DNA of 62,017 nucleotides from an uncultured Clostridia bacterium. Its GTDB lineage: Bacteria; Bacillota; Clostridia; TANB77; CAG-508. The position numbers and the translations under genes are program-made. Below the pieces are notes generated by a model. That model was not told where the DNA came from, did no database searches, and saw only the letters and a program-made list of their open reading frames with translations. Shown here piece by piece: positions 44,057-47,089 of the stretch (position 1 is the first letter of the stretch; every line of letters starts with the position of its first letter). The stretch lies in contig CALXZZ010000001.1 in assembly GCA_944393365.1 (NCBI GenBank), positions 1 to 62,017 on the forward strand, read 5' to 3'.

Positions 44057-44564
44057 TTTCTATTAACTCTCCTCGCTCATTTTTAATGTATTTTCTTTTT
44101 ATTTTGATTTTTTACTATTTTATTTAATTTTTTTCTATTTTTTTTATTTTATAAATTATTTAATATTATTTTTTTAATTATTTTTTTATTTTTAATATTA
44201 TTTTTTATTATTTTCTTAATTATTTTTTTATTAATTTTTTAATTTTTTATTTCTATTAAAATATTTAATATTTATTAAATTTAATTTAAAATCTAATTTT
44301 CTTATTTATCTCTTTTTTTCTAATTTATTCTATTTTTTACGATTTAATTCTAATTTATTTAAAATAAAAAATTTCTAACCTTTATTTTCATAGCATTTCC
44401 TATTTTTAAGAATTTTTTTCTAATTTATTCTAATTTATTCTAATTTTTTTAAAATTAAATTTTATTAACAAATAAATTAATTTATCATATTATATAACAA
44501 AAATGTAAAATTAGCAAAAAATAAAATTTTTCAAATTGGATTTATAACAAATAAAATAGAAAAG

Positions 44565-44847: not shown

Positions 44848-45396
44848 TCAACCTATTCTAGTATATACCTCATTAAATTCCGGATTTTCCTGTCCATTTA
44901 TTAATATCTTAACTTCATTAATTTCTGTTAATTCTGTTAATGTGTTTACAATACTATTAATTAAATTTTCTTTTCCATTTTCTGATTCTTTACCATAATT
45001 CAAAAATTCAGCTGAAAAATCTAAAACTATGCAATCTCCTTCTAAATAATTTTGAAGCAACTGTGTATTTTCTGGCATCAATTTTTTATTTTTTTCATTT
45101 TTAGGTCCTTCAATTAATAAATTAACTAATTTTTCATATGGGTTAGCCATCATATCTTTTATATCTAATAACCTTGCTTCTGGAACTAATTCATTTGTTT
45201 GACTATCTAGAAAATATAAACTTACAATTGTTTGTCTTAATTGTTCTTCTGTTATTTCTTCTTCTGGTACATATTCTTCTACTATTGTTTCTTCATTTTT
45301 ACTTTTTACATATTTTATTGCAAAATATCCTCCTATTAAAAGTAATACCAAAAGACAAACAAATATTATTAGTATTTTTTTATTCTTCATATGCAT
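44848..45396 (-). CDS. GerMN domain (germination protein M-like) lipoprotein or membrane-anchored protein
   Basis: N-terminal TM/signal, then VSLYFLDSQTNELVPEARL...LIEGP...VLDFSAEF, typical of GerMN. Confidence 0.7.
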   Translation of the reverse strand: MHMKNKKILIIFVCLLVLLLIGGYFAIKYVKSKNEETIVEEYVPEEEITEEQLRQTIVSLYFLDSQTNELVPEARLLDIKDMMANPYEKLVNLLIEGPKNEKNKKLMPENTQLLQNYLEGDCIVLDFSAEFLNYGKESENGKENLINSIVNTLTELTEINEVKILINGQENPEFNEVYTRIG

Positions 45397-45458
45397 ATCC
45401 TCCTCTTCAAATTAACTACTAAATATTTATTATTTGTTTGTCCAATTTAGAACTTTTT

Positions 45459-46733
45459 TTAATTTTTTAATGCTGTTATTGGAACAACATATACTCCATC
45501 TGGTCTTTTGTATGCTGCATTTGCTAATCCACATATTACACATAATATCTTTGGAACTTTCCCATTTTCTTTTTTTATCTCATCTTTAATTTTTAACAAA
45601 TTTTCACTTGCCTCATCTATTTGATTTGCGCCTAATTTTATTTCAAATGCACACCACTCTCCATTTTCTAATTCAACTACTGCATCAATTTCTCTATCTT
45701 TATAATCTTGATAATGATATAAATTGGCCCTAAATGATTCTGCATAAATTTTTAAATCCCTTTCACATAACGCTTCAAATAAAAATCCCAAAGTATTTAA
45801 GTCATTTAATAATTTTTCAGGAGTTGCTTTAAGCAAACTACATGGAAGTGATGGATCAACAAAATGTCTTTTTTCACTTTGTTTGACTTTAACAGAAGAT
45901 CTAATGTTTTCTGCAAAAGGTTTTTGATTGTCAAGTATAAATAATCTAGTAAATATATCTAAATAAGAAGCAACAGTGTCTATATCTATATCTTCATCAT
46001 CTATTTCTTTAATATCTCTTTTTAAAGTTTTATTTGTTACAGTTGTGCTCTCATTTCTAGCTAAAGAACGTAACAATAGTTTCATTTTATTAATATCTCT
46101 TTTTACACCATCTATTCTATATACATCATCATCTAGTATTGCATCTATATATGATTCAGGTAAAAGACCAGCCCTCTCAATAGGTACATTTAAATTACCT
46201 GGCCAACCTCCTCTTATAATAAATTCTATAATTTTTCTTAAATCAACCTCTCCCGTTAATTTTTCTTTCATATTTCCATTGCATAAATCTTGTAATGATA
46301 TATCTCCTGTTGAATCCCCTGATTCATATAATGACATTGGCCTCATTCTTAATTTTCCAATTCTTCCAGCACCACTATGCAATATCCCCTTATGATTTGG
46401 AGTAGCTGAACCAGTTAAAATGAATTGCCCTTTTTCTGCAGTTTTATCAACTTCATATCTTACTGCATCCCAAAGTCTAGGAACTTCTTGCCATTCATCA
46501 ATCAATCTTGGTTTTTCACCTTCTAGTACTATATTAGGTGCTGTTTCAGCTAACTTTTTGTTTTGAAAATTACCTTCTGGATTACCTATCATAATAGAGC
46601 TATTACTATGATAAATTGATGACCAAGTCTTTCCACACCATTTCGCTCCTTCTATACATACAGCTCCAAAAGTTTTTAAATATTCATCTATCATATTATC
46701 AATTATTCTTGGTTTATAATTTTTAATTTCCAT
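45459..46733 (-). CDS. AAA+ ATPase with DUF4143 (AAA_14 family)
   Basis: GAKWCGKT Walker A, a FILTGS Walker B-like segment, and a C-terminal REIDAVVE...WCAFEIK restriction-endonuclease-like DUF4143 signature. Confidence 0.8.
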   Translation of the reverse strand: MEIKNYKPRIIDNMIDEYLKTFGAVCIEGAKWCGKTWSSIYHSNSSIMIGNPEGNFQNKKLAETAPNIVLEGEKPRLIDEWQEVPRLWDAVRYEVDKTAEKGQFILTGSATPNHKGILHSGAGRIGKLRMRPMSLYESGDSTGDISLQDLCNGNMKEKLTGEVDLRKIIEFIIRGGWPGNLNVPIERAGLLPESYIDAILDDDVYRIDGVKRDINKMKLLLRSLARNESTTVTNKTLKRDIKEIDDEDIDIDTVASYLDIFTRLFILDNQKPFAENIRSSVKVKQSEKRHFVDPSLPCSLLKATPEKLLNDLNTLGFLFEALCERDLKIYAESFRANLYHYQDYKDREIDAVVELENGEWCAFEIKLGANQIDEASENLLKIKDEIKKENGKVPKILCVICGLANAAYKRPDGVYVVPITALKN

Positions 46734-46764
46734 ACTAAATCACTCCTAAATATATTATACACCA

Positions 46765-46879
46765 TTCCGTGCATTTTTGCAATATCAATCCGTGAGTTTT
46801 TTAATTTTCATTCCGTGTATTTTTATAATTTCGTTCCGTGCATTTTTCAAACTACATTCCGTGATTTTTTCACAACTTA
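46765..46879. repeat. Five perfectly phased 23-bp direct repeats with a TTCCGTG core (iteron-like or operator array)
   Basis: (T/A)TCCGTG starts at 46765, 46788, 46811, 46834 and 46857. Each is followed by a T tract, and the unit tails are degenerate. Confidence 0.85.
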
Positions 46880-47089
46880 TAAATATATTCTATACAAACA
46901 AAGCAAAATTATTCCCCTTTCAATTTATTACATTAATATTACGTATTTTTTCTTCAAAAATAGCATATTTCATTATAATAAAGTAAGTTTTTTCCATTTG
47001 ACAAAATTCGGTTTTCCGTATACAATTATAGATGTTACAATAAAGAAAGTTTTAAGACAAAAACTAACTTTTTTTGTAGAAAAGAAAGG

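Follow-up and report, generated by a model that had tools for sequence, protein, structure and literature searches.

We analysed a 62,017-nt stretch of DNA from an uncultured Clostridia bacterium (contig CALXZZ010000001.1 of GenBank assembly GCA_944393365.1), referred to below as the window, and focused on five 23-bp direct repeats in the 356-bp space between a leftward gene for an ATPase-nuclease with AAA_14 and DUF4143 domains (PADLOC defence candidate PDC-S01) and a rightward gene for a 1454-aa activase. Our favoured reading, to which we assign a probability of roughly 65%, is that the array is a private autoregulatory operator of the DUF4143/PDC-S01 gene, with the ATPase itself, in the form of a head-to-tail oligomer, as its reader. 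The array, its linkage to this gene family, its fixed place on the predicted promoter of the gene, selection on its cores, and a covariation between base 12 of the repeat unit and residue 252 of the protein were observed directly. PDC-S01 (DUF4143) genes have no published mechanism, ligand or regulatory logic, and what would be new here is that a very abundant, uncharacterised family has a 23-bp direct-repeat operator for autoregulation.

Read on the plus strand, five head-to-tail direct repeats of exactly 23 bp each extend from 46763 to 46877 (units 1 to 5 in Table 1), and Tandem Repeats Finder returned a period of 23 with 4.7 copies and a score of 104, in agreement with the exact phasing that an earlier sequence-only reading of this DNA had described. 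The same reading had placed the gene-proximal core 32 bp from the ATPase ATG (46733), which is correct, and had given the cores as TTCCGTG, which holds for four units; the second core is ATCCGTG, and the conserved part of the unit on the plus strand is TCCGTG-NN-TTTTT. On the strand of the leftward ATPase gene the unit reads xAAAAA-nn-CACGGAATG-nnnnnn, with A2-A6, C9-A14 and G17 identical in all five units. The 13-mer pattern TCCGTGNNTTTTT occurs five times in the array, and allowing up to one mismatch added a single further site in the 62-kb window; six matches were reached in none of 100 shuffles. Across the whole assembly (1.6 Mb, 27.5% G+C, 130 contigs), TCCGTG is present 80 times when both strands are counted, and three or more copies within 120 bp are found only at this array. 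The 23-bp array is real and non-random, and a search for others, which the sequence-only reading had proposed, left it as the sole such array in the 1.6-Mb genome.

Arrays with this spacing accompany related genes. Our genome set comprised 80 loci from species-representative genomes, encoding proteins 67-99% identical to the window ATPase and labelled Clostridia, Bacilli, Prevotella, Synergistota, Eggerthellaceae, Oxalobacter and other groups, and the period was scored as the best autocorrelation in the 140 nt upstream of each gene, with in-gene sequence as the control. The best upstream period was exactly 23 in 77/79 genome loci (in-gene control: 3/79) and 23 again in 68/74 loci of an independent metagenome set, so that a look at orthologous DUF4143 genes, another suggestion of the earlier reading, turned out positive. 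Plasmid-borne homologues with 26-42% identity, drawn from four phyla (Collinsella aerofaciens ATCC 25986, Bacteroides ovatus, B. uniformis, Prosthecochloris aestuarii DSM 271, Lentilactobacillus hilgardii and Actinomyces oris), showed a period of 23 in 6/6 cases, each with a core of its own. Bacteroides promoters differ in architecture, and because the Bacteroides homologues also show the 23-bp period, the protein is a likelier source of that period than -35/-10 geometry. Once units from 75 loci were registered against each other, A3-A5, C11, G13 and T16 were invariant, while positions 9, 10, 12, 14 and 15 varied between loci; the core is CACGGAAT in the window and GACTGAAT, GACCGATT, ATCGGATT or CACGGGTT in other loci. 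Array-bearing loci among these 75 hold two to seven units.

The spacing does not extend to DUF4143 genes at large. A wider sample across the phylum was mixed, with arrays of a 23-bp or a 33-bp period, recurring GTGAT motifs and palindromes covering the -10, and therefore we treat the 23-bp spacing as a subfamily character. Within the window's own genome there are eight DUF4143 matches with differing upstream elements: a 56%-identical paralogue on contig C49 carries four repeats at 23-bp spacing whose core differs (TTGCACAA), the gene on C63 has 2 x 32 bp (AAGTTGCAAAArTGTGAT), that on C37 a repeat of ~33 bp (AAAACGTGAT), and that on C51 two TTGAATnnATTCAA palindromes 32 bp apart; no upstream element was seen at the genes on C62 and C5 (the match on C13 is a fragment).

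Comparison with a locus in the same genomic context, whose protein is 99% identical (L028), revealed differences at 12/115 array bases as against 2.9% of the open reading frame (ORF). The 12 changes are confined to unit positions 1, 7, 8, 16, 17, 21 or 22, with none in A2-A6 or positions 9-15, an outcome with a chance of (55/115)^12, or ~1e-4, by our own arithmetic. The pattern indicates that the cores are under selection while the tails drift, much as the sequence-only reading had argued when it set aside a recent duplication. In a further relative (G006) the three proximal units are those of the window and the two distal cores have decayed, so that constraint is strongest near the promoter. 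We see next to no chance that the array is a functionless tandem duplication, produced by replication slippage in AT-rich intergenic DNA: such an origin would suit a window with many low-complexity AT-rich tandem repeats, but not cores that are conserved while tails drift, a 23-bp period shared, with differing cores, by ~150 loci and by distant phyla, or a repeat that covaries with a protein.

The array lies over the predicted promoter of the ATPase gene. A consensus promoter scan gave TTGCAA-17-TATAAT (10/12 consensus matches), and the gene-proximal core falls inside its 17-nt spacer. Among the 75 homologous loci, 46 have a TATAAT-like hexamer (at least 5/6 matches) whose first base is unit position 21 of the last repeat, and in most of the 75 the proximal core is within the predicted -35/-10 spacer, indicating that the position of the array on the predicted ATPase promoter is usually fixed across homologues. 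An Rfam search of 46600-47150 gave no family match at E <= 1.

Sequence variation also ties the repeat to the protein. Mutual information between repeat bases and protein columns peaked at residues 252 and 251, and raw values were high at residues 256, 243 and 238/239 as well. Both locus sets were then merged into 135 distinct proteins, from which a tree built without the helix columns yielded 67 non-overlapping sister pairs. Base 12 differs in 11/67 pairs, and residue 252 changed in 10 of these 11 as compared to 3 of the other 56 (Fisher 1.2e-8), ranking first among 220 variable columns (runner-up: 5e-6); the ranking was unchanged in the smaller first locus set. In the predicted recognition helix, residue 252 takes the second position. 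T12 is paired with Asn252 in 54/56 loci, C12 with Asp252 in 21/25 loci, and G12 with Glu or Asp at 252, the window itself combining Asp252 with G12. A 65%-identical homologue in another context (genome G002, contig C55) carries three CACGGAAT repeats and, along with this shared core, retains Ile251-Asp252. The covariation of base 12 with residue 252 points to the DUF4143 ATPase as the likely binder of the array, as had been proposed from the sequence; the part of that proposal which assigned DNA reading to the C-terminal nuclease-like domain is not borne out by our structural model, in which a central winged helix (residues ~214-290) is the likelier reader.

The protein is a clear member of its family, and Pfam upheld the earlier gene identities of both the DUF4143 ATPase and the activase. 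Pfam scores were 52.4 bits for AAA_14 (cut-off 27) and 109.4 bits for DUF4143 (cut-off 28.1), and the PADLOC PDC-S01 profile PDLC04790 was matched over the full length of the protein (E 7e-60, residues 5-422); in profile and domain pair the protein thus agrees with PDC-S01 (AAA_14 + DUF4143; COG1373). PDC-S01 denotes an ATPase fused to a PD-(D/E)xK domain and is the fourth most common prokaryotic defence candidate, unvalidated, with genes numbering in the tens of thousands (PMC12988326). DUF4143 was included in a survey of PD-(D/E)XK domains (PMC3424549), and among eight candidates tried in E. coli B, the four reported to protect against T4, T5 or T7 did not include the single PDC-S01 gene in the test (PMC12881386). 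The literature that we found on DUF4143, PDC-S01 and COG1373 covers the protein only and describes no upstream repeat array or autoregulation, and in this the window locus differs from published PDC-S01 descriptions.

Across 82 sequences, G29-K35-T36, D79-E80, E320, E348, E364 and K366 are invariant and D350 nearly so, and the E..D...ExK pattern is retained in homologues with 26-42% identity; judged from these residues, the Walker A/B and PD-(D/E)xK catalytic positions of the window protein are intact. An AlphaFold2 model built from the 82 sequences (predicted local distance difference test score, pLDDT, 92; predicted template-modelling score, pTM, 0.92) shows an AAA+ module, a region of winged-helix topology and a C-terminal domain modelled as alpha-beta-beta-beta-alpha-beta with the motif E348/D350 ... 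E364-x-K366. A Foldseek search with the full-length model returned the archaeal AAA+ ATPases 2fna and 2qen first and then Orc1/Cdc6 bound to origin DNA (2qby), the last with E 5e-6 and a template-modelling (TM) score of only 0.24-0.27. A PDB sequence-profile search with the window protein gave no match.

We next consider which gene the array serves. A DNA search of 40 relatives revealed that many genomes of the same genus keep only window positions 46988-47063, that is, the activase promoter, and that G006 (93% identity) and G002 alone have a match to the array region, in G002 beside a different DUF4143 gene. A Germane-domain gene (window 44848-45396) directly adjoins and diverges from the activase gene in at least 11 congeners (tblastn), and the short spacer between the two in those congeners has conserved ends, TATTATTTGTTTGTCCnnTTTAGAAC and TTTTCCATTTGACAAAA-n6-TTTTCCGTATACAAT. 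Because these same blocks flank the segment 45454-46989 in the window, we conclude that the segment is an insertion; the ATPase stop codon is 5 nt away from the host block. Comparison of these spacers indicates that the inserted segment is a one-gene cassette, the ATPase gene having apparently entered this lineage together with the array, and that the array belongs to the DUF4143/AAA_14 ATPase gene and not to the activase gene.

Given this arrangement, we regard it as very unlikely that the array is an operator at which another regulator controls the divergent activase gene, or both genes. The array does lie in the shared intergenic space, and the spacer of the activase promoter contains TTCCGTA at 47014 (ACGGAAT there in a sister genome), which the sequence-only reading had noted as a further copy near the activase start. 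That heptamer exists, at 47014-47020 in the 17-nt spacer, but it is no further array site: at least 11 congeners without the ATPase and without the array retain the activase promoter, TTCCGTA included, and therefore the heptamer is no member of the array. It also lacks both the A-tract and T16, the latter invariant in the 75 genome-set arrays scored, and we rejected it as a sixth site. Since the activase promoter is conserved in congeners that have no array, the array is unneeded for activase expression. In addition, ~120 bp separate the end of the array from the activase -35, the sequence of the array varies in step with the ATPase helix and not with a host factor, and homologous cassettes carry arrays whatever the neighbouring genes. 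The earlier description of the array as part of a shared divergent control region thus gives way to one in which it serves the ATPase promoter.

We propose the following scheme for the autoregulatory operator. The central winged-helix domain would read the core, composed of the A-tract, 2 nt and CACGGAAT, with residue 252 at the start of the recognition helix contacting unit position 12. The AAA+ protein would assemble head to tail along the array, which is the most likely mode because all sites have one orientation and are exactly 23 bp apart in nearly every relative. The proximal site would fill the spacer between the -35 (TTGCAA) and the -10 (TATAAT), and its occupancy would exclude RNA polymerase, resulting in cooperative autorepression that may hold a potentially harmful nuclease at a low, constant level. 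Physical binding and oligomerisation in this scheme are what we infer from the sequence comparisons, as are the transcription start and repression as the direction of regulation. The suggestion of the sequence-only reading that the array is a multi-site operator is supported, with the DUF4143 ATPase as the likely binder. If the scheme is right, a defined DNA ligand would provide a biochemical handle on the family, recognition would follow a simple rule of residue 252 versus base 12, and expression of a PDC-S01 gene in heterologous tests may depend on whether its array was cloned along with it.

Several observations weigh against the operator reading. The consensus promoter scan performed overall at chance level in this AT-rich region, and the ATPase promoter and transcription start are predictions. 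Folded in isolation, the winged-helix domain reached a pLDDT of 69 only, its fold hits (mostly Fur, PadR, F93 and KAT6A winged helices) were all non-significant at E > 0.5, and Pfam on residues 204-293 gave DUF4143 only, making the winged-helix assignment one of predicted topology. Only position 12 gave a clean covariation signal; at positions 9, 10, 14 and 15 the helix residues were not first-ranked in the independent contrasts, although raw mutual information at these positions had favoured residues 251, 256, 243 and 238/239. Sister pairs that differ in the repeat are also more divergent, and many columns reach p ~1e-5, so the covariation argument rests on the rank and location of residue 252 and not on raw p. 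A stricter independent-pairs test on starred branches was underpowered, with 4 usable pairs, ~3.3 concordant and 0 discordant (p ~0.25). Finally, not all five sites are indispensable, given the two decayed distal cores in G006.

The protein could also bind the array for another purpose, the array being a cis-acting assembly or identity site (a platform where the AAA+-nuclease oligomer is nucleated or parked, for sensing or self-restraint, or the recognised end of a mobile cassette) and not mainly a means of transcription control. We consider this unlikely, although several features agree with it. The unit is an insertion in this lineage, the PD-(D/E)xK motif is kept intact, the architecture resembles that of Orc1/Cdc6, which assembles on arrayed origin boxes, and relatives with 67-79% identity are labelled as several phyla. 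Moreover, cassettes 97% identical to each other (L125, L126, and L127 with its group) occur in three unrelated settings. The stretch that they share starts 116 bp before the ATG, 14 bp beyond the distal repeat, and ends ~30 bp after the stop codon; in other cassette lineages homology breaks at or inside the distal array edge. Because homology breaks at or near that edge, the array is the 5' end of the moving one-gene unit. By contrast, autoregulation accounts directly for the unvarying position of the last site within the -35/-10 spacer, as an assembly or identity site does not, no terminal inverted repeats or target duplications were seen by eye at the cassette junctions, and no second array follows the gene in the window. 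Own-core 7-mers in ~131 kb of flanks numbered 20 as compared to 19.5 expected, showing no enrichment. On these counts we also rejected targeted insertion beside operator-like sequence, an apparent excess of inverted upstream copies coming from one context sampled eight times. An extended form of the idea, in which the array and the AAA+-winged-helix-nuclease gene make up a self-contained, horizontally mobile one-gene module whose array is also the protein's cis site for recognising its own DNA, strikes us as similarly unlikely. Were it correct, self-recognition would serve to park a dangerous nuclease, to tell self from invader or to move the cassette, and the module would represent a new type of selfish or defence unit with a specificity code that can be read from sequence (Asn252-T12; Asp252-C12 or G12).

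A replicative role, with the repeats as iterons or origin-recognition boxes and the AAA+/winged-helix protein as a replicon initiator, seems to us most improbable. Such arrays resemble iterons or origins closely enough that they could be misannotated: at 5 x 23 bp the window array falls within the iteron length of ~17-23-bp tandem direct repeats, the gene of a DNA-binding AAA+ protein adjoins it, the Foldseek match includes Orc1/Cdc6 on origin DNA, and family members were found on 205 plasmid records. Against this, Pfam gives AAA_14 + DUF4143 and no domain of the Rep_3, RepA or Cdc6 families, a nuclease domain is part of the protein, and the array is tied to a predicted promoter in almost every locus. 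The unit lies between two conserved chromosomal genes on a contig >62 kb and is absent from at least 11 congeners, and with eight DUF4143 genes in this genome and 21 matches in another sampled genome, a role for all of them as replication initiators is implausible. No DnaA boxes or separate AT-rich unwinding element were seen, although no formal search was made. The plasmid or phage iterons to which the sequence-only reading had compared the array were rejected on the lack of a Rep-type protein, the chromosomal insertion between conserved genes and the multiple copies per genome.

By analogy, the arrangement appears to work like Rep-iteron, DnaA-box or Orc1-origin recognition box (ORB) systems without belonging to any of them, because the protein has no Rep or Cdc6 domain, the insertion is chromosomal and there are multiple copies per genome. 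With Rep iterons (pPS10 RepA, R6K pi, P1 RepA) it shares ~20-bp tandem same-orientation repeats beside the gene of a winged-helix reader, lineage-private sequences, and binding that also autoregulates the gene, the last a conjecture here. It differs in that the presumed reader is an AAA+ ATPase with a nuclease domain and no Rep-family domain, and in its chromosomal site, its multiple copies per genome and its array on a promoter instead of an origin; in classical iteron systems autorepression is usually via an inverted repeat. The archaeal Orc1/Cdc6-ORB systems and the AAA+/winged-helix ATPases SSO1545 (2fna) and PAB2304 (2qen) gave the best structural matches and unite an AAA+ module with a winged helix; the former also have arrayed recognition sites beside the protein's own gene. 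The match of the window protein to these structures is weak (TM 0.24-0.47, 12-16% identity), no Cdc6-type Pfam match was obtained for it, and it differs in its extra C-terminal PD-(D/E)xK domain and in strictly phased direct repeats on a promoter. The DnaA boxes at the dnaA promoter likewise pair an AAA+ protein that has a separate DNA-binding domain with oriented sites at its own promoter. DnaA represses its own promoter, and its oligomerisation along arrayed sites is ATP-linked. It is of another protein family, and its box is a universal 9-mer, as opposed to the cassette-private cores and the exact 23-bp phasing of the window array.

Table 1. Positions of the array, its presumed reader and the surrounding features in the window
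Feature	Position	Strand	Details and basis
Repeat unit 1	start 46763	+	CATTCCGTGCATTTTTGCAATAT
Repeat unit 2	start 46786	+	CAATCCGTGAGTTTTTTAATTTT
Repeat unit 3	start 46809	+	CATTCCGTGTATTTTTATAATTT
Repeat unit 4	start 46832	+	CGTTCCGTGCATTTTTCAAACTA
Repeat unit 5	start 46855	+	CATTCCGTGATTTTTTCACAACT
Five-unit 23-bp repeat array	46757..46877	-	ATPase-sense unit xAAAAAnnCACGGAATGnnnnnn
Gene-proximal core	46764..46771	-	CACGGAAT; inside 17-nt spacer of predicted ATPase promoter
Predicted -35 of ATPase promoter	46777..46782	-	TTGCAA; consensus promoter scan
Predicted -10 of ATPase promoter	46754..46759	-	TATAAT; consensus promoter scan
Shine-Dalgarno	46743..46747	-	AGGAG, 9 nt 5' of ATG; read from sequence
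ATPase-nuclease gene, AAA_14 + DUF4143	45459-46733	-	424 aa; PADLOC candidate PDC-S01; Pfam, PADLOC
Predicted winged helix-turn-helix, residues ~214-290	45864..46094	-	helices 214-226, 234-245, 251-263, then beta wing; AlphaFold2
Predicted recognition helix, residues 251-263	45945..45983	-	third helix; Asp252 paired with G at unit position 12
C-terminal PD-(D/E)xK-like nuclease fold, residues ~312-418	45480..45800	-	E320, E348, D350, E364, K366
Segment missing from at least 11 same-genus genomes	45454..46989		ATPase ORF, promoter/array and 112 bp of unknown origin (46878-46989)
Host block TATTATTTGTTTGTCCnnTTTAGAAC	45428-45453		flanks inserted segment
Host block TTTTCCATTTGACAAAA	46990-47006		flanks inserted segment
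Predicted activase promoter	-35 46998-47003; -10 47021-47026	+	TTGACA; TACAAT; promoter scan
Activase gene	47090-51454	+	1454 aa; BcrAD_BadFG x2 + DUF2229; Pfam

We also made some observations on the surroundings of the cassette and on its relatives. The activase promoter block at 46990-47031 (TTTTCCATTTGACAAAA-n6-TTTTCCGTATACAAT) is almost invariant across the genus, its spacer included, which suggests that this spacer contains a conserved regulator site unrelated to the ATPase. On the other side, all congeners examined have kept TATTATTTGTTTGTCCnnTTTAGAAC upstream of the Germane-domain gene, and this block is probably the promoter or a regulator site of that gene. The relatives with 67-79% identity (among loci L028-L107) are labelled Clostridia, Bacilli, Prevotella, Aminobacteriaceae, Eggerthellaceae, Oxalobacter, Riflebacteria, Fretibacterium and Limimorpha, a spread that results either from broad horizontal transfer between gut organisms or from mis-binning of some contigs of metagenome-assembled genomes. 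Loci L122 and L133 are relevant to cassette mobility beside L125-L127.

A dispersed palindromic element, GGGACGG(T/A)CC or GGACCGTCCC, resembling a miniature inverted-repeat transposable element or a repetitive extragenic palindrome, was seen in variable intergenic spots (window 595-666; L007 ~3000-3075; spacers of L011, L012, L018 and L026). Because genome G001 (L012) carries a ~500-bp palindromic insert in the Germane-activase spacer, this spacer appears to be an insertion hot spot in the genus. Elsewhere in the window, Tandem Repeats Finder marked long, extremely AT-rich degenerate intergenic tandem repeats at 44079-44480 and 9143-9900 (periods 12-105 bp), and a 12-bp repeat, AAGGCATGCAAA, at 32856-32968 (6.3 copies, 90% matches) forms the second-highest-scoring short-period array in the window.

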